A DNA stretch of 64,000 nt from Terriglobia bacterium (GTDB taxonomy: Bacteria; Acidobacteriota; Terriglobia; Acidiferrales; UBA7541): contig OY968796.1 in assembly GCA_963695545.1 (NCBI GenBank), positions 320,001-384,000 of the forward strand, read 5' to 3'. Under the pieces are notes generated by a model that searched no databases, was not told where the DNA came from, and was given only the letters and a program-made list of their open reading frames with translations. The position numbers and the translations under genes were made by a program. Below are positions 21,312-39,283 of this stretch, piece after piece. Within the stretch, counting starts at the first letter, position 1. Each line of letters starts with the position of its first letter.

Positions 21312-22622
21312 CTAGCCGCCGATCACGCGCCCCACGAGCGGACGGCCCGCGGCCGGCGGCCGCTGCGAAATGATGTATGCGGTTTCGACCAGGCGCCGCG
21401 CCTCGTCGAGTCGCGCGTCGGAGTTGTAATGCAGCGTGCAGAGCGGTTCGCCGCGCGCGACGCGATCGCCATTCCTCTTGTGAAACACCAGGCCCACCGC
21501 CGGATCCACCGAATCTTCTTTCTTCTCGCGCCCGCCACCGAGCACCACGACCGCGACGCCCAACTGCTCGCACTGCGTCGCTGCGACGTAGCCGTCGGCC
21601 GCGGCCACAACATCGAGCGTGTGTGCCGCCGGCCGCAGCAGCTTCGGATCGTCCACCACGCGCGCGTCGCCTCCCTGCTGCCGCACGATCTCGCGAAATT
21701 TTTCGCGCGCGCGGCCCGACGCGATCAACTCGGCCGCCACGCCCTTGCCTTCCTCCACGTTCTTCACCCGCTCGCCGAAAAGCAGCATCCACGCCGCGAG
21801 CGCCAAACACAATTCGCGCAAATCCGCCGGGCCGCCGCCCGCGAGCACTTCGATCGATTCCTGCACTTCCATCGCATTCCCGGCAGTGCGTCCCAGCGGC
21901 TGATCCATGTCCGTGAGCAGCGCGACCACCTGCTTGCCCATGCGGCGCCCGGTCTCGACCATCAATTCGGCAAGCAGCGTGGCATCCGCCTCAGTTTTCA
22001 AAAACGCGCCCGAGCCGACTTTGACATCGAGAACCAGCGCGTCGATTCCTTCCGCCAATTTCTTGCTCATGATCGAAGCGCAGATCAGCGAGCGGCTCTC
22101 AACCGTCCCCGTGACGTCGCGCAGCGCGTACATCTTCTTATCCGCCGGCGCGATCTCCGCCGTCTGACCGATCAGCGCGCAGCCCACGGTCTCCAGCGCG
22201 TGCCGAAATTCCGCGAGCGACAAATTCACGCTGAAGCCCGGAATCGATTCGAGCTTGTCGAGCGTGCCGCCCGTATGCCCCAATCCTCGCCCGCTGATCA
22301 TCGGCACGCGCACTCCGGCCGCGGCCACAATCGGCGCAATGATCAGCGAAGTCTTGTCGCCTACGCCGCCGGTTGAATGCTTGTCCACTTTTCGTCCGGG
22401 CATATCGGAAAAATCGAGCACCTTGCCCGAATGCAGCATCGCGTCGGTCAGCGCGGCGGTTTCCGCGCCATTCAATCCGCGCAGAAACGCAGCCATCAGC
22501 CACGCCGACATTTGATAATCGGGAATGTCCCCGCGCGTATAACCAGTGATCAGGAATCGGATTTCTTCAGGCGTGAGTTCGGCGGCGTCGCGTTTCCGGC
22601 GAATCAAATCAACGACGCGCAT
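21312..22622 (-). CDS. pdp: Pyrimidine-nucleoside / thymidine phosphorylase
   Basis: DKHSTGGVGDK, SGRGLGHTGGTLDKLESIPG and SIMSKKLAEG motifs. Confidence 0.95.
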   Translation of the reverse strand: MRVVDLIRRKRDAAELTPEEIRFLITGYTRGDIPDYQMSAWLMAAFLRGLNGAETAALTDAMLHSGKVLDFSDMPGRKVDKHSTGGVGDKTSLIIAPIVAAAGVRVPMISGRGLGHTGGTLDKLESIPGFSVNLSLAEFRHALETVGCALIGQTAEIAPADKKMYALRDVTGTVESRSLICASIMSKKLAEGIDALVLDVKVGSGAFLKTEADATLLAELMVETGRRMGKQVVALLTDMDQPLGRTAGNAMEVQESIEVLAGGGPADLRELCLALAAWMLLFGERVKNVEEGKGVAAELIASGRAREKFREIVRQQGGDARVVDDPKLLRPAAHTLDVVAAADGYVAATQCEQLGVAVVVLGGGREKKEDSVDPAVGLVFHKRNGDRVARGEPLCTLHYNSDARLDEARRLVETAYIISQRPPAAGRPLVGRVIGG

Positions 22623-22798
22623 GATTGGCAGCCTAGCATCCGCCGATAAACCGCGTCAACGAAACCATGCGGGCCGGTTGACCCAAAACCAATCGCGCCG
22701 AACGCGATTCGGGAACCAGACGGCCGCCACTCGCCGCCGAAATTGGGTAGGGAAAAAAAGGATTTTCTTCGCGGCCCAAATAAATTACTATCTCTCTT

Positions 22799-23104
22799 AT
22801 GCCAAGAATGAATAAACCCGCGATAGCCGACGTGATGCCCAAGACCGAAAAGAGGGGCGCCGCGGAAGCCGCGCTTGCCGCGGGCATGGCGCCCGCTGAG
22901 GTTTTCACCGCCGTCGTGCAGGATTATTACGGGGTCGCTGAGCGCAGAGGTCTTGTGGTGCACTGGGGCAGAATCATGCACGTTCCGCCTAGCGCCGCTT
23001 TGCGGATCGCGCAGGACGCGGACTTGATTCCGCCGACCCGCCTGACGCCTGCGCGGCCTCAGGAAAAGCCTCCGCATAAAAGCGTGCCAGAAACTTCCGA
23101 ATAA
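22799..23104 (+). CDS. Hypothetical protein (uncertain)
   Basis: 101-aa ORF preceded by TACTAT 7 nt upstream (leaderless-like); no recognised motif; overlaps a convergent ORF. Confidence 0.3.
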   Translation: MPRMNKPAIADVMPKTEKRGAAEAALAAGMAPAEVFTAVVQDYYGVAERRGLVVHWGRIMHVPPSAALRIAQDADLIPPTRLTPARPQEKPPHKSVPETSE

Positions 23105-23210
23105 ACCTCCCGCCACGCGGCGTAAGGCTGCGGATCGTCTCCACTCTCTTTTTAGCGGTCATCGCTGCGTATTTTGCGCGAATGGCGTTTACCAGATGCT
23201 TTTCAGCCAA
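22989..23210 (-). CDS. Small basic hypothetical protein (uncertain)
   Basis: GGAGG RBS with TTG start; amphipathic helical-looking 73 aa. Confidence 0.4.
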   Translation of the reverse strand: MAEKHLVNAIRAKYAAMTAKKRVETIRSLTPRGGRFIRKFLARFYAEAFPEAAQASGGSAESSPRPARSAKRR

Positions 23211-23360
23211 TTGAGTTCACCCCTCCCGAGCGCTCTCTTCAGCGCATGATAGACACCCTCCGCCGCCAGCGTCAATGGGAGAAGAGGCGGCCACAGTCCT
23301 GTTTTCGAACGACCCTATTTGACCGCTTCTATTCGAATACCCAATCAGTTTATATTTACA

Positions 23361-23396
23361 AATCGTAATTGACAATCGTAATTGCCATGCTATAAT
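23361..23396 (+). promoter_or_regulatory. Consensus sigma70 promoter TTGACA-16-TATAAT (extended -10) with AATCGTAATTG direct repeat
   Basis: TTGACA at 23369-23374, TGC-TATAAT at 23388-23396; 11-bp direct repeats at 23361 and 23374. Confidence 0.75.
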
Positions 23397-23503
23397 GTGT
23401 TCCTATCGTCGGAGCGCTTCGTGCCTCCAGGCGGAACGCAATACCTCGCCGCAGTCGCTTCAAATCCCTCGCCAAATCCTCTCGCGTCGCCGAAAAAACG
23501 CCC

Positions 23504-23585
23504 TAACCCTTCTAGAATGACCAGTTCTGAGAAATCGCATTTTAACCTCTCTAGAATCAACACTTCTGGCGCAAAGGACTTAAAG
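23504..23585 (+). repeat. Left part of a 39-bp-period degenerate repeat array interrupted by the IS
   Basis: AACCCTTCTAGAATGACCAGTTCTG and AACCTCTCTAGAATCAACACTTCTG; the third unit continues at 26842. Confidence 0.7.
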
Positions 23586-23646
23586 GGCGATTATGTACTT
23601 GACAAAGTAACGCGATTCAGGTAGTCTCTGTGTCAGTGAGGCTGCC

Positions 23647-24630
23647 ATGAACCTGATAGACGTAACCCGAAAGTTCGCCACGAAAGAAGCCTGCAACGAA
23701 TACCTAGCCGCGATGCGCTGGCCGAATGGCGTCACATGCACTCATTGCGGCGTTGTCGGCGACGATCAATTCCGCTCGTTCACCACGCGCGAGACTGAGC
23801 GCAAGCGGTACAGCAAGCGCAAGAAGGCTGTTGTTACGGTCAAGGTTCCGTCGCGCAGCCTGTACGAGTGCAAGGGCTGCGGCTATCAATTCAGCGCGAC
23901 CACGGGCACGGTGTTCCATGATTCGCACTTGCCGCTGGAAAAGTGGTTCATGGCGATTGCGTTGATTCTGGAAGCGAAGAAAGGAATCAGCGCATTGCAG
24001 GTCTGCCGCAATCTTGGAATCCCTGAGAGTAGCTACCGGACGGTCTGGTATCTCTGCCATCGCATCCGTGAAGCCACGCAAGAGACCGGCCTGCTATCCG
24101 GCATCGTTGAGACCGACGAGACCTACCTGACACCGAAGAAGCCGCGCAAGGGAGCGCCGAAAGTGAAGAAAGAAAAACGCGACGTGGTACTTGGCATGAT
24201 CGAGCGCGGCGGCAGGCTGCGAATGGTTCCGATGCGCGACGCGAAGATGGAGATAATCGAACCCATCCTTGCGAAGCACATCGCGCCCGACGCCACGCTA
24301 CAAACTGACGAACACCCGACCTACGCGATAATCGGGAAGCGCCGTTTTCCCGGCAGGCATCGCGCGATCAACCACAGCCAGTCCTACGGGATTGGCGACA
24401 ACACAACCAACTCGATTGAGAATGCGTTCTCGCTGTTAAAGCGCGGCGTCTATGGGACGTTCCACAAGGTCTCGATAAAGCACCTTGGCCGCTATTGCAA
24501 CGAGTTTTCCTACAGGTTCAATCGGCGCGGGAATCAGTCGGAGATGTTCGGCGAGACCGTGAAGGGATTGCTAAACAACGGGCCGCTGCCGCTCAAGAAG
24601 CTGACTGCTTCCGAAACATCGGAGACTTAG
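23647..24630 (+). CDS. IS1595 family transposase
   Basis: RWPNG..CTHC...CKGC zinc ribbon, IVETDETY / LQTDE / TNSIE catalytic motifs, YCNEFSYRFNRR; promoter TTGACA-17-TAGTCT partly inside TIR-L. Confidence 0.95.
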   Translation: MNLIDVTRKFATKEACNEYLAAMRWPNGVTCTHCGVVGDDQFRSFTTRETERKRYSKRKKAVVTVKVPSRSLYECKGCGYQFSATTGTVFHDSHLPLEKWFMAIALILEAKKGISALQVCRNLGIPESSYRTVWYLCHRIREATQETGLLSGIVETDETYLTPKKPRKGAPKVKKEKRDVVLGMIERGGRLRMVPMRDAKMEIIEPILAKHIAPDATLQTDEHPTYAIIGKRRFPGRHRAINHSQSYGIGDNTTNSIENAFSLLKRGVYGTFHKVSIKHLGRYCNEFSYRFNRRGNQSEMFGETVKGLLNNGPLPLKKLTASETSET

Positions 24631-24742
24631 AACCGCGCTTTCCAGAAGTTTTTATCTCGCTCTGTGGCTTTGGCTTTGAGCCGAGCAATGCGGAGAGTAC
24701 CGCGTCGAACTTCTTCTTCTCGACAAGTACCCTTTTCTTCAT
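24593..24742 (-). CDS. 49-aa basic protein convergent with, and overlapping, the transposase 3' end
   Basis: MKKRVLVEKKKFDAVLSALLGSKPKPQSEIKTSGKRGSKSPMFRKQSAS; extended -10 TGCTACGAT 6 nt before ATG (leaderless). Confidence 0.6.
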   Translation of the reverse strand: MKKRVLVEKKKFDAVLSALLGSKPKPQSEIKTSGKRGSKSPMFRKQSAS

Positions 24743-24768
24743 GGGTGAATCGTAGCATAATTGCTTAG

Positions 24769-24860
24769 CGGGGCCGGAAGGATTCGGACCTTCGGAACGT
24801 GCCTTAACACGTTTCGCCCGATTATAAGTCGGGTGCTTTAAACCACTCAGCCACGGCCCC
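24769..24860 (-). tRNA. Atypical class II tRNA: Ser-type body with UAU (Ile/AUA) anticodon, no encoded CCA
   Basis: Acceptor GGGGCCG/CGGCCCC, G73; D-arm GCTGAGTGGTTTAAAGC; anticodon arm CCCGA-CTTATAA-TCGGG; V-arm AACGTGT-TAAG-GCACGTT; T-arm GAAGG-TCCGAAT-CCTTC. Confidence 0.85.
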
Positions 24861-24869
24861 GCTAAGCAA

Positions 24870-24974
24870 TCAAGTGCGCCCGCCCCGGTAAGGAAACGGG
24901 CGCACCTTTGAAAAGTCTAAGTTGAAAACTGGTGGCGGTCGTGCTATAAAGGAGACCAACCGTAGGCGCATCAT
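24870..24974 (-). CDS. Putative 34-aa leader peptide directly upstream of the tRNA(UAU)
   Basis: AAAGGAGG RBS; MMRLRLVSFIARPPPVFNLDFSKVRPFPYRGGRT; Ile10 is encoded by ATA; the stop abuts the tRNA precursor stem. Confidence 0.5.
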   Translation of the reverse strand: MMRLRLVSFIARPPPVFNLDFSKVRPFPYRGGRT

Positions 24975-25021
24975 CGCGCCTCCTTTCGTGAACATCGACA
25001 GTCGCTAAGGGATAGGTTCTA

Positions 25022-25053
25022 GGGGTAAGAGAGGTTACAGCCTCTCTTACCCC
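25022..25053. other. Strong hairpin between the 138-aa ORF and the leader ORF
   Basis: GGGGTAAGAGAGG-TTACAG-CCTCTCTTACCCC, 13-bp perfect stem without a clear U-tract. Confidence 0.6.
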
Positions 25054-25068
25054 GCTTCTACTTATGGT

Positions 25069-25485
25069 TCATTTAGTCCGTTTCCCCACAAACCCTACAG
25101 CAAGAAGGGGCTGTTTGTTTGCTTGAAGGTGCTCTTCGGGTATTTCGGCAACAAACATGGATTCCGATTCGTCCCACTTAGCAGGATACGATCGAGACTC
25201 AGACCGGTCATAGCCGATGTAGTCCATGAAAGTCTTGGCTGAAAATCCAGCACCGTTTCCCTTCTTCCCGTATGCCAAGGCATAAGCGCGGGAGTCTTTC
25301 TTACTGATCGGGCGAACTCCCAACTGATGCTTGGCTGCATCCCACATCAGCAGAACATACTCAACGGCGTCCTTTTCGAGGATTGCCGTGGCAGATTTGT
25401 TGAATGCTAGACGGCCTAGCTTGTTAAAGGTAACATTAGGGCTGCCACTCCGACGTACTCTGCGCGTGAAAATCTCCCAACTCAT
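25069..25485 (-). CDS. Hypothetical 138-aa protein (IS passenger)
   Basis: AGGAGG RBS; upstream TTGACA-19-TATAAT with extended -10 (25554-25524); globular beta-rich composition. Confidence 0.8.
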   Translation of the reverse strand: MSWEIFTRRVRRSGSPNVTFNKLGRLAFNKSATAILEKDAVEYVLLMWDAAKHQLGVRPISKKDSRAYALAYGKKGNGAGFSAKTFMDYIGYDRSESRSYPAKWDESESMFVAEIPEEHLQANKQPLLAVGFVGKRTK

Positions 25486-25743
25486 CGCATTTCCCTCCTA
25501 TTCGAGAAGCATCGACAGAACAGATTATACCATACGTTACATGAGAATTGTCAATAGCAAACTTCAGAAACTCCCATTGTTTCCGGTAGCCTCAGAATAC
25601 TGCAAGCCTATCTCGCGTGTCCCTTGGTACGCGGTGAGTTTGACTTGGGAATAGTATGCCGGATACTTTCGTCTTGAAATACATTGCCGCAATCTTTTAT
25701 ATTGCGTTAGTGTAGCTATCGTAATCTGCTGATGAGAAACAAG

Positions 25744-25772
25744 TTGACTGGTTTATCTCGAATGCCTAGTAT
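25744..25772 (+). promoter_or_regulatory. Sigma70 promoter TTGACT-17-TAGTAT for the small RNA / DUF3800 transcript
   Basis: -35 at 25744-25749, -10 at 25767-25772; predicted TSS ~25779 coincides with the first base of the RNA closing stem. Confidence 0.7.
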
Positions 25773-25778
25773 ATCTGT

Positions 25779-25846
25779 GCGACTGGGCCGAGACGCTACG
25801 CGACTCTTGCAGGGCCGAACGGCCCCGCCCCAGACGCTTTTTTTTT
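25779..25846 (+). ncRNA. Candidate DUF3800-associated structured RNA (three-way junction plus U9 tract)
   Basis: Closing stem GCG-A-CTGGG/CCCAG-A-CGC; hairpins GAG-A-CGC-TAC-GCG-A-CTC and GGGCC-GAAC-GGCCC; followed by T9. Confidence 0.6.
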
Positions 25847-25888
25847 CTCGGTCAATTGCTTCCCTCGAAGAAAGCCTGAAATCCGTAA

Positions 25889-26773
25889 ATGCACCTTTGC
25901 TACATAGATGAAAGTGGCGTGCCTGAACTAAATCAAGGGACGAGTCATTTTGTGCTGCTCGGTCTATCTATCGAGGCGTGGGATTGGAGGGGTCAAGATC
26001 GCGCGGTTTCGGTCGTTAAGCGAAAGTTTGGGCTGTACGGCGCAGAGATTCATACCGGATGGATGACTAGGCGTTATCTTGAGCAGGAGAGAATCCCAAA
26101 TTTTCAATCGCTGGATCGAACTGCTCGCCAAACACAGGTAAGAAAAGAACGGGACGCGCAACTCATCAAAGAGGATGCTCTTAAGGGAAGCAAGGCCGCC
26201 AGAGAACTGCGGAAGAGCTACCGCAAGTCAGATACCTATATTCATTTGACCCTAGGGGAACGAAGGAATTGCCTACGGGAGCTTGCTGATTTGATTGGTG
26301 GGTGGGGAAACGCGCGACTTTTCTGTCATGCAATTGATAAACGCGCCTTTGGGTCAACGCCGCCTGCTAACCCACCACGAGAAGAAGCGTTCACCCACGT
26401 AGTCAGTCGCTTTGAGCGATACCTTTCGGATATAGGAGACCCGCGAACGATCGGACTCCTTGCTCATGACCATGACGATACGTCCGCAGACAGAATGACC
26501 CAATTGATGCGCCAGTTTCATTCGAGCGGAACAATGTGGACTGCCATCACAAGAATTATCGAAACCCCGTTTTTCGTGGACAGTAAATTGACGGTTGGCG
26601 TTCAGTTGGCGGACTTGTGTGCGTATGCTACTCGCCGCTACTGCGAGAAGGGCGAGACCGATTTATTTGATAGAATTTGGCCCCGATTTAACAGGGTTGG
26701 AACGAGGGTAGTCGGGTTGCGCCATTACGTCGGGGCTCGAAACTGCACCTGCCGGATTTGTACTTCACATTAG
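25889..26773 (+). CDS. DUF3800 domain protein
   Basis: N-terminal YIDESG, EIH motif and C-terminal FVDS...VQLADLCAY, the typical DUF3800 signature. Confidence 0.88.
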   Translation: MHLCYIDESGVPELNQGTSHFVLLGLSIEAWDWRGQDRAVSVVKRKFGLYGAEIHTGWMTRRYLEQERIPNFQSLDRTARQTQVRKERDAQLIKEDALKGSKAARELRKSYRKSDTYIHLTLGERRNCLRELADLIGGWGNARLFCHAIDKRAFGSTPPANPPREEAFTHVVSRFERYLSDIGDPRTIGLLAHDHDDTSADRMTQLMRQFHSSGTMWTAITRIIETPFFVDSKLTVGVQLADLCAYATRRYCEKGETDLFDRIWPRFNRVGTRVVGLRHYVGARNCTCRICTSH

Positions 26774-26841
26774 AAATACCGCCTGCCTGTCACGCCTCAA
26801 TCCTGCCGTTTGGCCGCTACTTTGTCAAATCCATATTCGCC

Positions 26842-26894
26842 CTTAAAGTCATTCAGAATCAGCACTTCTGAAAAACACCCGGGGGGGAGGGGGG
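26842..26894 (+). repeat. Right part of the interrupted repeat array (third unit plus AAAAACACCCGGGGGGGAGGGGGG tail)
   Basis: AAGTCATTCAGAATCAGCACTTCTG restores the 39-bp period when the IS and one TSD copy are removed. Confidence 0.7.
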
Positions 26895-26898
26895 CGCC

Positions 26899-27699
26899 TT
26901 ACTTCGTCGGATCGCTTTTGGAGGCCCCAACTTCGGCCAGGCGCTTCTGCATCTCCGCGTGGATACGCGCGTTCGATGCGACCATGTCAGGGTCGCCCGG
27001 GCGATGCGGCGCCCCGCCGGCAAATGGCGTCACGCTGCCGCCCGCCTCGCGCACCAGAAGCGCGCCTGCGGCAGTGTCCCACGAGCGCAGACCAAATTCC
27101 CAGAAGCCGTCAAATCGGCCGCACGCCACCGACGCCAAATCCAACGCGGCCGATCCATCGCGGCGGACACCATGAGAGTGCAACGTAAAATCCCAGTAGT
27201 AGCGAATGTTGAGACTCTGTTCGCGCTTGTTGGTCGGAAAACCCGTGGCCACCAGGCTCGTCGCGAGCGTGTCGATCGTCGAAACGTGAATTCGTTTCTG
27301 ATTCAAAAACGCGCCTTCGCCGCGCACCGCGGTGAACATTTCCTGCGCCATTGGGTTGTAAACGGCGGCGACCAAAAGCTCGCCCGCTTCTTCAAGGCCG
27401 ATCGAGACGGCAAAGCACGGATAGCTGTGCGCGTAGTTCGTCGTGCCGTCGAGCGGATCCACATACCACCGAAACGCCGACGCGTTTTCCTGGCCGCCGC
27501 CTTCTTCGGCGACGATGGCGTGCTTCGGGAAATGGTCGCGCAGCCGCGTCACGATCGCTTGCTCGGATCGCTTGTCGGCTTGCGTCACGATGTCCACGTC
27601 GCCCTTGTAAGTGATCTGGCGCGGGCGGTCGAATTCCGCCAGCAGGATGGCTCCGCCTTCGCGCGCCGCTTCGACGGCGACATCGAGATAAGCATTCAT
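26899..27699 (-). CDS. suhB: Inositol monophosphatase family protein
   Basis: WYVDPLDGTTN, RRDGSAALDL and WDTAAG motifs. Confidence 0.93.
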   Translation of the reverse strand: MNAYLDVAVEAAREGGAILLAEFDRPRQITYKGDVDIVTQADKRSEQAIVTRLRDHFPKHAIVAEEGGGQENASAFRWYVDPLDGTTNYAHSYPCFAVSIGLEEAGELLVAAVYNPMAQEMFTAVRGEGAFLNQKRIHVSTIDTLATSLVATGFPTNKREQSLNIRYYWDFTLHSHGVRRDGSAALDLASVACGRFDGFWEFGLRSWDTAAGALLVREAGGSVTPFAGGAPHRPGDPDMVASNARIHAEMQKRLAEVGASKSDPTK

Positions 27700-27789
27700 G
27701 ATTTTGTTCTGGCTCTCCTGATCGCAGCAACCATGATGCCAGAACAACACGCCGGCGCGCGAGCAAATGAACGCGCGGCTGCGCGGCCG

Positions 27790-28758
27790 CTATTCGGGAG
27801 AGATGCCGGTGTAATAGATTTTGCGGGAGTGGACGATGTAATCGCCCGCGACGCGGACTTCGATCGAGCGATACGTGTCTTGCGGCGGCTTCGGATCGGG
27901 ATAGTAGCCCAGGCGATATTGCGTGCGCAGCTCGCGATTGATCAAATCGAACGTCGGACCGAGTTCTTTCAAACTGTCGAGGTAATAAATCGCGCCGCCG
28001 GTTGTATCGGCGATGGTCTCGAGCGCGTGTTCGCCTGCCGTGTTGCGGCCGCCTTCGTTGGTGACGGCGCGCACGCAAATGGTGTAGAGCAGCGCATCGG
28101 CGCGCACCGCGGCGTCGCGGGCCTTGGCGAAGTCTGCGTGGCTGGTGGTTTCTCCCGCGTCGGTGACCAGCACGATCACGCGCCGCCGGCCCGATGGATT
28201 GCGCGCGAGCGCCTGCGAGCCGAGAAACACGGCGTCGTAAAGCGCGGTGCCGGCGCCCGGCTCAAGACGCCGCAACGATCCCTGCAAGTACGCGGTGTCG
28301 CCGGAAAATCCGCCGACCAAATCGACCACATCGGCGAACCCGAATACCGCCATGCGGTCGGTGGGCCGCACGACCTGGTCAATGAACGCCGCCGCGGCCT
28401 GGCGCTCGAATTCGAGCTCCTGCGTTTCGCTCAGGCTGCAATCGATCATCAGCGCCAGATCGAGCGGCGTCTGCGTGTCCGGCTCGAACACTTCGATCTT
28501 CTGCCGCACGCCTTCTTCGTAAATTTCAAATTGATCGGCAGTGAGGCTCGCAGCCGGATGATGATCCTTATCGAGGACGCTCGTGATCACCGTAACGAGG
28601 TCCGCTTCCGCGCGGATCGTGCCGCGCGTGTCAGTGCGTGGCGGCGGGGGCGCCTGCGCCGAATCGAGCGCCGCGCCGCCGCACGAAAGCACCAGCAGCA
28701 GCGCGCAAGCAAGCGACGGCCGCGGACGGATATGCGCCACGATTCGGGCGGGGCTCAA
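27790..28758 (-). CDS. Secreted VWA domain protein (Acidobacterial type)
   Basis: Signal peptide, MIDAS-like DCSLS, TALYDAV, LVTD and TGG motifs, YRLGY. Confidence 0.88.
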   Translation of the reverse strand: MSPARIVAHIRPRPSLACALLLVLSCGGAALDSAQAPPPPRTDTRGTIRAEADLVTVITSVLDKDHHPAASLTADQFEIYEEGVRQKIEVFEPDTQTPLDLALMIDCSLSETQELEFERQAAAAFIDQVVRPTDRMAVFGFADVVDLVGGFSGDTAYLQGSLRRLEPGAGTALYDAVFLGSQALARNPSGRRRVIVLVTDAGETTSHADFAKARDAAVRADALLYTICVRAVTNEGGRNTAGEHALETIADTTGGAIYYLDSLKELGPTFDLINRELRTQYRLGYYPDPKPPQDTYRSIEVRVAGDYIVHSRKIYYTGISPE

Positions 28759-36032: not shown

Positions 36033-38096
36033 TTACAGCACGGTTGTGTTCAGCCACTGTGTGCGTTGAACCGTCGTCGTGGTGTTGGTCGGCAAAGCTC
36101 CGCCTTGCGTGAGCGTAGTCGACGGAAACCACGGTGGCGCGAAATTCGGCCGGGCGGTGAAGCGGCGATCGAACCAGACGTTTTCGGTGTCGATATCCGC
36201 GGAATAGATGCAACTTTGAATCTGGCCGCCGACGTTGTTAAAGGTGTTGACGAACCCGTTGGCCAAAAAGCCGCCGGTGCCGGAGCCTTGGTTGCAGCCG
36301 CCCGAAGCCGTCTGCGATATGGTGGCAATGCTCCCGTCCACCTGAATATTCGAGTTGGCGTAAGTGCTCTGCACCGTGAAGTTGCCGGTCGCCGTAAAAA
36401 TGCCGAGAACCTGGTTCATGTTTTCGGCGCTGGGAACCAAGGTGTCAATGGGCGTGCCGGCGCAACAAGGCGGATTTGAGCCTGTAATGATCTCGTTCTG
36501 CGTGTCCGTCACGGGCTCGGTTTTGTACAGCACATCTCCGGTGGCCGTGACGTTGTCCTGCGCCGTGATCGTGATCATGGCGTTGTCCTGGATGGCCGCC
36601 TGCCCCTGCCCCGGACCGCTGAGGCTATTGATGCTCCCGTCGACGTAGAGCATCGTCGAGGCATTGTTGGTGAAGTTATCCATCGGGACGCCACTGAGGG
36701 TCTCAGTGGTAGCGCCCGAGCTGATCACGGTGCTACCGATACCGCCATTCGTGGCGGGATCGACGGTGATTGTCGTTACCGTACCGCCCTGAGTGATTTT
36801 GTAAACCTGAGCGGTCGAGCCGCTGGGCAGGAGCTCGACGTTGGCGTTGCCTTCGATGTAGAAACCGCCGCCCATTACACACGGTATGGACTTCGCCCCG
36901 CACGAGGTGGCGGTTGTTCCGGGATCGGTGAGATACACGCCTGAAGCCGCTCCGGTAGTCGGATATGCCACACCCGAAAGAGTCTGCAAGTCCGCATGCA
37001 ACGTGGCGTCCGTCAGCGCAGGCGGCGCTGGCGAGGTTGAGCTGCCGCACACGTTAGAGCCTTCGCCGCAACCCTCTCCATCGATAACCGCCCATTCCTG
37101 GTTGATGGTATTTTGGGGCAGCGTAACGGCGGGCTGACCGAGTTGGTAGCCCGCTTGGAATTGGGGATTTACGAGACTGCTTCCGCTCCCCCAAGGCCCG
37201 GTCGTCGTAGCTGTGTTGCAGCCCCAACCGCTATTCCACCAATTCATGCTGCCGCTGGCTTGTCCGATGGGGTCGGTGAAAATATAAGGCGAGGTATACG
37301 GCGGAATGGCGGCCATGAATTCCCAGCCACCGTTGGTGAACATCGGTCCCGTCATGGTGCCAGGAACCAACGGTCCGTCGCACGGGGGATACTTGTCGAT
37401 GAAGGCCCCGAAATACGCGAAACTCACGGCATTCGCGGCCGCTTGGCCGGTAATGTTCATTCTGATGCTTCCGTTTTCTGTTACCGTGTCCTGCTCGCTT
37501 CCGGAAGCTGAACCGATCGAGGTGAGCGTGTAATTGAAGACGTACTGATAGGCCGAGTCGCAAGGCGAGGTCAGACTCGCGGTCCCCACCGTCACCGACG
37601 AGCAACCGGAAGCCGAGGTATTGACGGCTGTGACGGTCGGCGCACCTGCCAGGCACAACGAGGCGTTGGTGAGCTCGAAGCTTTCCTTCCAGGAAGTAGT
37701 TCCAGCGCCGGCGTTCAGGCCGGTCTGGCTCGCGTATGACTGAAGCACGTTTGTCGCGACGGTCTCCGGCAAGCCACTGCCAGAAGTGCCGCAAACAGGT
37801 CCCGAATTTGCAATCGGAGGTTCGGCGAATGTCGTGGGCACGTCGGCTGTGATACCGGTCACGAGTTTCTCGCGAGCGATATTCAATCCCGAATCGGCGG
37901 CATAGTAGGAGCCGCGGAAGTTGCGATAATACCCGCCGATCAGGGTCTGCGAACTGAAAGCGATGACCATCCCCAAGGCGAGCGCGACCATCATCATCAA
38001 CAGCAAGAGCGTAATGATCAGGGCGACTCCCCGCTCTTTCCGGATGTCGGAGCGGCCAGAGGGCAAATGAAGGCAAGTTGATGTATGCATTCTCAT
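36033..38096 (-). CDS. PilX-like minor pilin with large C-terminal domain (copy 1)
   Basis: ERG|VALIITLLL prepilin start without Glu5; YYAADSG PilX_N motif. Confidence 0.85.
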   Translation of the reverse strand: MRMHTSTCLHLPSGRSDIRKERGVALIITLLLLMMMVALALGMVIAFSSQTLIGGYYRNFRGSYYAADSGLNIAREKLVTGITADVPTTFAEPPIANSGPVCGTSGSGLPETVATNVLQSYASQTGLNAGAGTTSWKESFELTNASLCLAGAPTVTAVNTSASGCSSVTVGTASLTSPCDSAYQYVFNYTLTSIGSASGSEQDTVTENGSIRMNITGQAAANAVSFAYFGAFIDKYPPCDGPLVPGTMTGPMFTNGGWEFMAAIPPYTSPYIFTDPIGQASGSMNWWNSGWGCNTATTTGPWGSGSSLVNPQFQAGYQLGQPAVTLPQNTINQEWAVIDGEGCGEGSNVCGSSTSPAPPALTDATLHADLQTLSGVAYPTTGAASGVYLTDPGTTATSCGAKSIPCVMGGGFYIEGNANVELLPSGSTAQVYKITQGGTVTTITVDPATNGGIGSTVISSGATTETLSGVPMDNFTNNASTMLYVDGSINSLSGPGQGQAAIQDNAMITITAQDNVTATGDVLYKTEPVTDTQNEIITGSNPPCCAGTPIDTLVPSAENMNQVLGIFTATGNFTVQSTYANSNIQVDGSIATISQTASGGCNQGSGTGGFLANGFVNTFNNVGGQIQSCIYSADIDTENVWFDRRFTARPNFAPPWFPSTTLTQGGALPTNTTTTVQRTQWLNTTVL

Positions 38097-38122
38097 CGGG
38101 TTCTCCAAAATCGTTCCAACGT

Positions 38123-39283
38123 TCAGTCGTTCATGCTCATATTGCGTGGATTGACCACCACGGTTGATCCAACGACCTGGTAGGGGCCGTTGTCAAATGT
38201 GTTTCGAAACGTATAAGTGGGATCGGGATTCGGATTTGTCCGTCCGATCAGAGAAATGCGCACGGATCGGACGAGCGTGAAGTCATCATAGTAGTCGGCC
38301 GGATTGAAGTGATAGCAGCCGGTGTCGCCGACCGCGTCGCAACTGCTCGTGGCGTCGGTGGTGGCGTCGTTCCAGGTGGCTACGCCGATCTTGAAGCCAA
38401 TCACCTGCTCGGCGATCACGTTGGTGACGCCGCCCTGAATCCGGTCCAACTTGGGATCGGATGGAACGCTGGTGTCCACGGAGTAGGTGGTCGGCTCGAG
38501 CTTCATCACCCAATCTTGCGCGCAGAACTGATTGCCGAGTTTTGACGCGAGAGTAGTGGATTGCGCGATGCTGTTCGCCGTGAATCCGATGGGATCATTC
38601 GCCGGACCATTTGTGAAATAGGTCGTATTCGACGCAAGGTGAGAAAATGCGACGTAATTGGATCCGGCAGTGGGGGCGCCGGTAATTACAAACGTATTTA
38701 CCTGGCCTCCGTTGCTGGCCGTGATCAGAATCAACTGGTCGCCGATGCTAAACGACGCGGCTGTTCGGGTGGCGGCGTGGGCCATTGTCTCAGCACCTAC
38801 GGGGGCATAGGGTTGGACGTAGAACGTGGTGCCAGTCGCGGCGCTGCAGTTACCGGAGTTCGTGCCGCCAGTTGCATCCGTGGGATGGACCGGCGCAACG
38901 TTCGGATTCATGGTGAGTATGTTCAGCGTATCGAAACACTCAGAACTGTAGGTATAGGTTGCGGCGTCATTGCAAGGCGCGGTGGGCAGTTGATTGACGA
39001 TGGAAACGCCCACGGGCCAGCTCGGGATATTTGCTCCCGGATAATATCCTGTGCCGGCATTTGCCAGATCGAGTTGCATCTGAGTGATGGCGTTCTGCAT
39101 GGCAATGTTGGTGCCGGCCAGATTCTGCTGCGAAGTGAAATAAGGCGCATGCTGGCTGAACAGCGAGAAGGTGCTGCCGGCGATGACAGCGAACATCAAC
39201 ATGGCCGCCATGAATTCCACGAGAGTGAAACCGGACATTCCGGCGCCGCGCTTGGCGCGCTTTTCCAGGGAAGTTCTGTTCAT
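38123..39283 (-). CDS. PilW-like minor pilin (copy 1)
   Basis: SG|FTLVEFM N-methylation site, DLANAG, VRSVRISL. Confidence 0.85.
   Translation of the reverse strand: MNRTSLEKRAKRGAGMSGFTLVEFMAAMLMFAVIAGSTFSLFSQHAPYFTSQQNLAGTNIAMQNAITQMQLDLANAGTGYYPGANIPSWPVGVSIVNQLPTAPCNDAATYTYSSECFDTLNILTMNPNVAPVHPTDATGGTNSGNCSAATGTTFYVQPYAPVGAETMAHAATRTAASFSIGDQLILITASNGGQVNTFVITGAPTAGSNYVAFSHLASNTTYFTNGPANDPIGFTANSIAQSTTLASKLGNQFCAQDWVMKLEPTTYSVDTSVPSDPKLDRIQGGVTNVIAEQVIGFKIGVATWNDATTDATSSCDAVGDTGCYHFNPADYYDDFTLVRSVRISLIGRTNPNPDPTYTFRNTFDNGPYQVVGSTVVVNPRNMSMND

Follow-up and report, generated by a model that had tools for sequence, protein, structure and literature searches.

Irregular transfer RNAs (tRNAs) with the anticodon UAU are the commonest group of allo-tRNAs in Acidobacteria; one of them, a pseudogene, overlaps a transposon-related open reading frame (ORF), and a link to transposons or toxin-antitoxin systems has been proposed, as stated in the available passages of Mukai et al. 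2017 (PMC5389517). Here we describe a tRNA(UAU) gene that resides within a 3,256-bp insertion of the IS1595 family (positions 23586-26841) in a 64,000-nt stretch of contig OY968796.1 from a Terriglobia bacterium (GCA_963695545.1). This stretch is referred to as the window, and positions are given in its coordinates. The element also encodes a transposase, a 49-amino acid (aa) protein (p49), a leader micro-ORF, a 138-aa cargo protein and a DUF3800 protein (Table 1). Comparison with related elements suggests that the tRNA(UAU) decodes AUA codons fixed within the element's own genes, thereby gating or recoding its proteins, a reading to which we give about an even chance (roughly 50%).

The tRNA(UAU) resembles the allo-tRNA(UAU) genes of Mukai et al. 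(PMC5389517; review PMC7609411), as far as the available parts of these sources go, in habitat, phylum, CUUAUAA anticodon loop, long variable arm, TCCGA T-loop, and the association with a transposon-related ORF and toxin-antitoxin genes; the host genome, like the Acidobacteria of that study, has a cluster of two irregular tRNAs. The two differ in the body of the molecule. The defining trait of allo-tRNAs is an 8/4 or 9/3 division between acceptor and T stem, whereas ARAGORN, Rfam and the family consensus all give 7/5 for the tRNA described here. As the flanks can pair, the acceptor stem could be read further outward, as 8/5 or 9/5, but this is still neither 8/4 nor 9/3. The major allo-tRNA(UAU) group listed (among the first 32 of 186 UAU rows of the published table) has U73, whereas the present tRNA has G73. 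The 22-mer at the 3′ end of the tRNA is absent from the sequence table of Mukai et al., so membership in their listed groups could not be shown.

Transporter insertion sequences (ISs) of the IS1595 family, which carry passenger genes, likewise combine a DDE_Tnp_IS1595 plus zinc-ribbon transposase, terminal inverted repeats (TIRs), a short target duplication and extra genes between the ends. In the present subfamily, in contrast, a tRNA and a small ORF are conserved throughout and appear co-adapted with the transposase codons. Phage-borne tRNAs, including the suppressor tRNAs of stop-codon-recoded phages, offer another parallel, i.e. a mobile element that brings a tRNA for its own, host-rare codon. 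In phages with recoded stop codons, a codon of the phage's own genes takes on a new meaning through the tRNA. Here, however, the carrier is an insertion sequence of 2-3 kb, the codon is a sense codon, and the coupling concerns a few fixed positions of the transposase. Ambiguous decoding of CUG as Ser and Leu in Ascoidea (PMC6041473), to judge from the available part of that source, shares with the element a tRNA body and an anticodon that possibly belong to different amino acids, a competing decoder, and avoidance of the codon at conserved positions. Such cases are organism-wide, whereas here the signature is confined to transposon genes and the host appears standard (TilS; ATA in control genes behaves as Ile).

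A full-text literature search and the passages of PMC5389517 yielded no 7/5 tRNA family, no fixed place of such a tRNA beside an IS1595 transposase and p49, and no position-specific ATA codons in transposases; the codons of neighbouring ORFs are not examined in those passages, and the main text of that paper, leaving its figures aside, does not contain the term "codon usage". The finding joins two known kinds, ISs with passengers and mobile-element or missense-suppressor tRNAs, and would be categorically new if recoding were confirmed. We know of no insertion sequence with a tRNA as a conserved core gene, nor of one with that tRNA's codon fixed in its transposase. Coupling of codon and tRNA is unexpected and directly testable. 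If real, it would represent a novel strategy by which a selfish element controls its expression or keeps it private, would give the puzzling irregular UAU tRNAs of soil Acidobacteria a natural function, and could represent sense-codon reassignment limited to a mobile element. It would also provide a small orthogonal tRNA/codon pair of natural origin, and a means of addressing by direct experiment the question left by Mukai et al. 2017.

Position-specific AUA codons in the transposase and p49

A first-pass annotation of the element, prepared from the window sequence alone, noted ATA codons in every ORF of the element. The counts bear this out: four were found in the transposase gene, two in the DUF3800 gene (codons 6 and 182), and one each in the 138-aa ORF, p49 and the leader ORF. 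In long ORFs of the host, ATA accounts for 6.2% of Ile codons (3.0 per 1000 codons). Since the element is less GC-rich than the genome (52.5% versus 60.6%), part of the excess is expected from composition.

Relatives of the element were collected through the tRNA 3′ 22-mer, which was found in 104 metagenome stretches; 80 loci with 74 distinct tRNA regions were retrieved. Codons were threaded onto an alignment of 26 distinct full-length tRNA-linked transposases (46-100% identical), and 32 GC-matched IS1595 transposases (53.8% versus 53.6%) that have no tRNA linked to them served as controls. Codon 4 is ATA in all 26 linked genes, and the surrounding codons 2, 3, 5 and 6 vary synonymously. In columns 203, 228 and 277, ATA is present in 16, 13 and 16 of the 26 transposases, respectively, and ATT or ATC never; the alternates are Ser/Thr/Pro/Met/Val (203), Phe/Trp/Tyr/Lys/Thr (228) and Lys/Thr/Val (277). 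Together, columns 4, 203, 228 and 277 hold 71 ATA codons and no ATT or ATC (0/33 alternates). The six other columns with at least 70% Ile contain 134 ATT/ATC codons and not a single ATA. No such exclusion was seen for the A-ending rare codons of Leu, Val, Arg, Gly, Thr and Lys. The share of ATA among Ile codons is 22% (109/495) in the linked transposases versus 8% (36/441) in the controls, which do use ATA in conserved-Ile columns (4/23). Control residues at the ATA columns are T/S/A (203), S/A/G (225), G (228) and P/A/K (277), with Ile in 0/32.

Each codon was also scored against the column frequencies of the controls. This profile test recovered the standard meaning of 16 of 18 other codons (GCA was read as Ala with a negative score, and CCA was undecided). 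ATT and ATC scored as Ile, and ATA of the controls was assigned to Ile in 20 of 20 random splits. For ATA of the linked set, Ala and Ser rank first and Ile tenth. Ser at AUA is not claimed as a result of this test, since no residue scored positively.

In p49 (49 distinct sequences aligned) ATA makes up 82 of 119 Ile codons, i.e. 37 per 1000 codons. It occupies the central column of a K-I-K motif in 44 of the 49 sequences, and in a second column ATA (24) is mixed with ATT/ATC (10). The pattern of a reassigned or ambiguous codon, i.e. exclusion from standard columns combined with alignment to other residues, was found for the transposase only, and not for p49 or the 138-aa family. Judging from these alignments, the ATA codon itself is under selection at defined positions, and ATA has been purged from the Ile positions of the transposase.

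The tRNA(UAU) and its relatives

The tRNA(UAU) gene scores 60.8 bits against the Rfam family RF00005 (threshold 29). Alignment of 60 relatives gave a consensus 7/5 cloverleaf with a long variable arm, in which compensatory double changes affect 7 of the 24 pairs. Of 75 distinct relatives, 51 have CCA encoded directly behind G73, and every host tRNA gene likewise ends in CCA. The anticodon loop reads C/UUUAUAA in 49 of 60 parsed copies. Drifted anticodons (UUU, CUU, CCU) were found in five copies, all without downstream p49 and transposase, and p49 is present beside 40 of the 43 copies with the UAU anticodon (loops were parsed automatically and seven rows re-read by eye). From its own features and those of its relatives, the tRNA(UAU) looks functional. 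By reading, hairpins were found at the same place upstream of the tRNA(UAU) in related loci as in the element itself.

Seryl-tRNA synthetase (SerRS) recognizes a long variable arm and G73, neither of which is a feature used by isoleucyl-tRNA synthetase (IleRS). The first-pass annotation described the tRNA as having a Ser body. This holds for the 7-bp variable stem and G73, the only features of tRNA-Ser type, but not for the sequence as a whole, which is as near to the putative host tRNA-Ile2(CAU) (61/93 identical positions) as to tRNA-Ser(UGA) (60/93); tRNA-Tyr reaches 60/93 as well. Identity with the putative tRNA-Ile2(CAU) amounts to 21/26 in the 5′ part, and the context of the anticodon loop is common to both. 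As candidate charging enzyme, SerRS is suggested by the variable arm and G73, and IleRS by the anticodon loop and the overall resemblance to tRNA-Ile2.

Four contigs of one metatranscriptome run map to the element. One of these RNA-library contigs (234 nt) spans positions 24778-25011, covering the tRNA and the leader with two differences, which is a weak hint that the two are co-transcribed, carry-over of DNA being possible. The exact 22-mer was found in 2 of 401 genomes of the class, host genome included, so genome-based prevalence is either low or hidden by assembly.

In eight related elements (L050, L058, L064, L075, L089, L100, L105 and L107) a promoter-like site TTGAC...TATGAT lies ~40-150 nt upstream of the tRNA. 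It is placed within palindromes of the ATCACTTTTTTGTGAT type that face a divergent helix-turn-helix (HTH)/Gp49-like gene set, and in this class the tRNA may be under repressor control.

Two further loci with tRNA-like features were noted. A 93-nt tRNA-like gene (G000:C1:2260191-2260283) has the acceptor stem of a host tRNA-Ser, G73 and CCA; its anticodon stem is closed by a 4-nt loop, and ARAGORN assigns it no anticodon. Two overlapping ARAGORN calls of transfer-messenger RNA (tmRNA) were obtained at G000:C1:4086954-4087736, one standard, with the tag ANTELALAA, and one of the permuted type, marked with an asterisk, which is probably an artefact.

Conserved core and variable cargo

Within the retrieved metagenome loci, p49 was detected by tblastn within ~50 nt downstream of the tRNA in 61 of 80, and a convergent transposase downstream in 48 of 80; many of the other contigs end too soon. 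Both inverted-repeat cores could be located in eight loci, 2.1-2.8 kb apart. Matches to p49 were also found once elsewhere in L058, and in L004, L019 and L030. Of other IS1595 transposases from the same class, 28 are without such a tRNA, and 2 of 30 loci hold an ordinary short tRNA (Gln, Phe).

The first-pass annotation had treated the tRNA, the 138-aa protein and the DUF3800 protein as one system and proposed their co-occurrence elsewhere as a test. The survey does not support such a unit. The 138-aa protein lies beside the tRNA(UAU) in 3 of 80 loci, and DUF3800 was found in none of 95 upstream ORFs from 40 loci (Pfam scan of 95 of the 187 upstream ORFs). DUF3800 genes are divergently placed in two other elements with a UAU tRNA, L005 (from another phylum) and L030 (same genus). 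The three DUF3800 proteins are 25-38% identical and the transposases of their elements 54-82%; the far lower likeness of the DUF3800 proteins fits separate captures. Of 24 genome loci of the 138-aa family only one (L005) has DUF3800, and this family adjoins tRNA-like genes of many kinds and anticodons. The slot upstream of the tRNA varies among the relatives and may hold HARE-HTH proteins, HTH/DUF3467/Gp49 sets, NYN, ParE, Panacea, or another irregular tRNA.

From these comparisons, the conserved core is composed of the transposase, p49 and the tRNA(UAU) with its long variable arm, the 138-aa protein and DUF3800 being variable cargo. The layout of the subfamily, as read from the aligned loci, is left inverted repeat, transposase, convergent p49 and tRNA(UAU), variable cargo slot, and right inverted repeat. 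This IS1595 subfamily is common in soil Acidobacteria and their neighbours.

Proposed role of the tRNA(UAU) and alternative explanations

We hypothesize that the tRNA(UAU) is active in translation and reads AUA codons maintained by selection in the element's own genes, namely transposase codon 4, some three other positions of the transposase, and between one and three positions of p49. The host rarely uses AUA and would read it through TilS and tRNA-Ile2 (TilS and a putative tRNA-Ile2(CAU) are present in its genome), so that correct, active proteins of the element would depend on the element's tRNA. Such a private codon/tRNA pair would gate or recode transposase synthesis, so that how much transposase (and p49) is made, or with what sequence, would depend on the tRNA. 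With a rare codon at position 4, decoding close to the site of initiation would become limiting. The antisense run of p49 into the 3′ end of the transposase gene may add a second layer of control.

The purge of ATA from Ile columns suggests that AUA decoding in element-bearing cells is not safely Ile. The tRNA may be charged with Ser, with Ile, or with both, the last giving ambiguous decoding. Charging with Ser, or with both amino acids, would account for the survival of ATA at tolerant or non-Ile sites only, and dual charging with ambiguous decoding would account both for its absence from conserved Ile positions and for its presence at hydrophobic positions of p49. The p49 alignment seems to fit Ile or ambiguity better than pure Ser. 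In a bolder version, the whole IS1595 subfamily would run a private genetic-code deviation, in which SerRS, either by itself or together with IleRS, charges the tRNA(UAU), the fixed AUA codons of the transposase are read as a residue other than Ile, and active enzyme is made only where the tRNA is expressed; this version we consider doubtful.

Several observations weigh against a decoding role. In tRNAs, position 55 is almost always U, but the T-loop of this tRNA(UAU) (UCCGAAU) has C there, and CTA replaces CCA after G73 in this copy. The ATT-ATA pair of the leader ORF is invariant even beside tRNA-like genes with other anticodons, so its conservation may reflect a motif at the RNA level; the invariant ATA at transposase codon 4 could serve a nucleotide-level signal instead. 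Amino-acid signals appear to conflict: residues at the transposase ATA columns are small or polar in the controls, whereas the few alternates in the K-I-K column of p49 are Met/Ile/Val/Leu, and the 138-aa family, most of whose members sit by tRNAs of other kinds, mixes ATA freely with ATT/ATC in hydrophobic columns. Owing to the variability of the ATA columns, none of the residues scored positively for ATA of the linked set in the profile test. The 26 transposases are related to one another, and their counts do not represent independent events. Moreover, six variants of allo-tRNA(UAU) tested as amber suppressors were inactive in E. coli, according to the available passages of PMC5389517.

Some of these points would suit a tRNA-like gene that is a non-translational structured RNA of the IS, e.g. 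a processing signal for RNase P/Z, a stabiliser, or the 5′ part of a transcript antisense to the transposase gene that acts in cis, with the conservation of ATA arising from other constraints. In their available text, Mukai et al. conclude that translation may not be the function of most allo-tRNA(UAU), and that these may be connected with transposons or toxin-antitoxin systems (PMC5389517, PMC7609411). The tRNA and p49 are convergent with the transposase gene and overlap its 3′ end, the perfect 17-bp extension of the acceptor stem and the flanking hairpins resemble processing structures, and C55 and the CTA of this copy are in line with the same role. However, a non-translational role would leave unexplained why 40 of 43 intact copies retain the UAU anticodon and drift is confined to the five copies lacking p49 or transposase, why CCA is encoded in 51 of 75 copies, and why ATA is position-fixed and kept out of Ile columns in the linked transposases and not in the 32 controls, and we regard this explanation as unlikely. 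Plain codon supplementation, in which an AT-richer element brings an Ile-accepting AUA decoder into GC-rich hosts and AUA means Ile throughout, agrees with the lower GC content of the element, the low frequency of ATA in the host, and a tRNA as near to the putative tRNA-Ile2(CAU), whose anticodon-loop context it shares, as to tRNA-Ser. It also agrees with the alternation of ATA with Ile/Met/Leu/Val in p49 columns and with ATA acting as Ile in the 138-aa cargo family. It predicts that ATA should spread into Ile columns, but none was found there (0/134), and the ATA-dominated columns are devoid of ATT/ATC (0/33 alternates). Since, in addition, GC-matched controls lacking the tRNA do use ATA in Ile columns, and neither G73 nor a long variable arm is characteristic of IleRS substrates, supplementation alone seems quite improbable.

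The first-pass annotation proposed that the module handles AUA decoding, either through a tRNA that mistranslates AUA-rich phage genes or through a tRNA-targeting DUF3800 nuclease curbed by an RNA decoy. The general idea finds backing in the conserved tRNA(UAU) and in the position-fixed ATA of the transposase, p49 and the leader, but the two mechanisms do not. Divergent DUF3800 genes in L005 and L030 speak for them, as does the upstream cargo of related elements, rich in toxin-antitoxin-like or nuclease genes (Gp49/HTH pairs, ParE, NYN, Panacea); also, two of six variants derived from allo-tRNA(UAU) killed E. coli, as reported in the available passages of PMC5389517. However, PADLOC returned no family at E≤0.1 for the transposase, the 138-aa protein, DUF3800 or p49, no phage context was seen, and the conserved AUA codons are the element's own. 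Together with the rarity of DUF3800 (0/95 upstream ORFs from 40 loci; 1/24 loci of the 138-aa family) and the divergence of its three copies (25-38% versus 54-82% for the transposases), which fits separate captures, this makes a defence or toxin function very improbable. Decoding of the element's own AUA codons by the tRNA(UAU) remains the reading that we favour.

Element structure, boundaries and insertion site

Features of the element are summarized in Table 1. The genes, hairpins, promoter and ~60-nt structured RNA listed by the first-pass annotation are each present, and its description of a single IS1595 element bounded by TIRs and a target-site duplication proved exact in its coordinates.

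Table 1. Features of the IS1595-family element and its borders (window coordinates)
Feature	Position	Strand	Remarks
Target-site duplication CTTAAAG, left copy	23579..23585		7-bp direct repeat read from sequence
Left terminal inverted repeat, 27 nt	23586..23612	+	inverted-repeat pair, 39 nt, 85%
IS1595-family DDE transposase, 327 aa	23647..24630	+	ATA codons 4, 203, 228, 277; PF12762, PF12760, NF033547
p49, 49-aa basic ORF	24593..24742	-	single Ile codon is ATA (codon 30); convergent with transposase gene
Extended -10-like box TGnTAnnAT	24749..24757	-	ends 6 nt before p49 ATG; read from sequence
Perfect 17-bp inverted repeat carrying the acceptor stem out into the flanks (precursor stem)	24760..24870	-	100% complementary; paired in fold
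tRNA(UAU), 93 nt	24768..24860	-	7/5 cloverleaf, long variable arm (7-bp stem), G73; ARAGORN, Rfam RF00005
Leader micro-ORF, 41 aa (first ATG) or 34 aa (ATG ATG after AAGGAGG box)	24870..24995	-	in-frame ATA, then R-P-P-P
GC-rich hairpin directly 5′ of tRNA	24874..24905	-	fold of 24755-25068, z -6.8
13-14-bp hairpin after 138-aa ORF	25022..25053	-	inverted-repeat pair; listed on + strand by scan for terminator-like hairpins
138-aa cargo protein	25069..25485	-	tandem AbrB/MraZ-like pseudo-barrel (model); 99 homologs; pLDDT 84
Promoter-like TTGACT-17-TAGTAT, ~60-nt branched structure, U9 run	25744..25846	+	upstream of DUF3800; promoter-like site 25744-25772
DUF3800 cargo protein, 294 aa	25889..26773	+	PF12686, E 1e-16
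Right terminal inverted repeat	26815..26841	-	differs from left repeat at 4/28 positions
Target-site duplication CTTAAAG, right copy	26842..26848		7-bp direct repeat

The ends of the element lie within imperfect inverted repeats of 39 nt (23574-23612 and 26815-26853; 85% complementary), the core of which is also found at the ends of related elements in metagenome loci. An empty site was identified in a genome of the same genus (G003), where contig C122 matches window positions 23495-23585 at 37804-37896 and 26842 onward at 37890-38792. The two flank matches overlap by 7 bases, and CTTAAAG is present there in a single copy, so the insertion is limited exactly to 23586-26841. The usual target duplication of the IS1595 family is 8 bp, compared with 7 bp here. 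A DDE transposase of the ISXO2/IS1595 type with an N-terminal zinc ribbon, TIRs, a target-site duplication and an empty site are all present, which places the element in this family. The transposase matches PF12762 (E 3.8e-32, 111.9 bits), PF12760 (E 6e-10, 39.3 bits) and NF033547 (E 9e-52, 176 bits), and its homologs number 7,258.

The p49 gene overlaps the 3′ end of the transposase gene by 38 nt in antisense orientation. A TATGnTAnCAT box, with variants, occurs in most of the p49 spacers displayed, 5-8 nt 5′ of the p49 ATG; a -10-like box so near to the start codon suggests that the p49 mRNA is leaderless.

A second copy of the same IS is located at G000:C1:2003284-2007327 (L004, 1284-5328). 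Its transposase is 93% identical and p49 is retained; the two copies are 87% identical across the first 1,154 nt, and the adjacent tRNA has been lost. No right end was recognisable at up to 7 mismatches, so this copy cannot be used as a second complete example. Some 2.8 kb beyond it in L004, on the far side of an IS1-like gene, a promoter precedes a tandem pair of irregular tRNAs. One is a "Gly(UCC)" of 69 nt, the other a UAU tRNA of 97 nt with an 8-bp acceptor stem and a 6-bp anticodon stem. This pair is similar to the irregular tRNA polycistrons described in the available passages of Mukai et al. (PMC5389517).

Cargo genes

No Pfam family was matched by the 138-aa protein, and NCBIfam gave no match for the cargo proteins. 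The structural model of the 138-aa protein aligned with MraZ (Z 5.8, root-mean-square deviation 3.3, 87 residues aligned) and with plant B3 domains (Z 3.5-4.3). Foldseek returned a probability of ~0.7 and E values of ~0.1-0.4, with no match in the PDB at E≤0.001; the fold match is weak but consistent.

Among the 24 genome loci of the 138-aa family, an IS1595 transposase lies within 5 kb in 11, and a tRNA-like gene is placed directly downstream, on the same strand, in eight. The kinds and anticodons of these eight genes vary; they include long-arm UAU tRNAs in two loci, and short-bodied ones with GCU, UUG and CGA. In L012, L013 and L015, reading of the sequence identified tRNA-like genes with an 8-bp acceptor and a 4-bp T stem (the 8/4 type of allo-tRNAs) ~230-330 nt after the 138-aa homolog. 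They have C at position 33 of the anticodon loop and were called neither by ARAGORN nor by Rfam at gathering score. In L025 (5409-5530) and L027 (1190-1310), tRNA-like genes that directly follow the stop codon of the homolog have normal acceptor, D and T arms, with an insertion of ~50 nt in place of the anticodon arm. In 10 of the 24 loci the leader ORF has an in-frame ATA before an (R/G)-P-P motif, and the flanking codons vary synonymously.

Another member of this group was found in L014, from a metagenome-assembled genome of Desulfomonilia. Downstream of the 138-aa homolog lies a 99-nt tRNA-like gene (L014:5643-5741) with a long arm, A73 and the Pro anticodon UGG, the 5′ half of which is 88% identical to ordinary tRNA-Leu genes. 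The adjoining IS1595 transposase gene (L014:5788-6774) has three CCA codons, one of them at a position where 51 of 57 relatives have Leu. The Leu-like tRNA(UGG) is possibly a second, unrelated private codon/tRNA pair, which hints at generality. A search of 301 genomes of its phylum gave only partial matches to this tRNA (~88% identity to the first ~50 nt of the query), which we read as the 5′ halves of ordinary tRNA-Leu genes.

The DUF3800 protein scores 62.5 bits against PF12686 over residues 3-251 (Pfam gathering cut-off 21). The branched RNA predicted upstream of its gene has a folding energy of -29.5 kcal/mol (z -2.4). A connection to the Rfam DUF3800 RNA motifs, as suggested by the first-pass annotation, was not borne out: a covariance-model search of positions 22500-28000 at E≤1 gave the tRNA and two chance-level rows only, with no DUF3800 motif, and none was found in L005 at gathering score. 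The 5′ leaders of the DUF3800 genes in L005 and L030 contain a TTGAC promoter-like box and a GC hairpin.

The target of the insertion (23495-23585 plus 26842-26895) is a repeat of ~135 bp, of which at least six further copies exist in the host genome (e.g. G000:C1:1962500-1962632 and 524608-524760), and relatives have copies as well. The repeat holds a motif of roughly TAGAATCANCACTTCTG, three times over. Just left of the insertion, at 23361-23386, there is a tandem 13-nt repeat, AATCGTAATTGAC, the second unit of which carries one change. It lies beside a TATAAT-like box and may be an operator or promoter of the adjoining gene.

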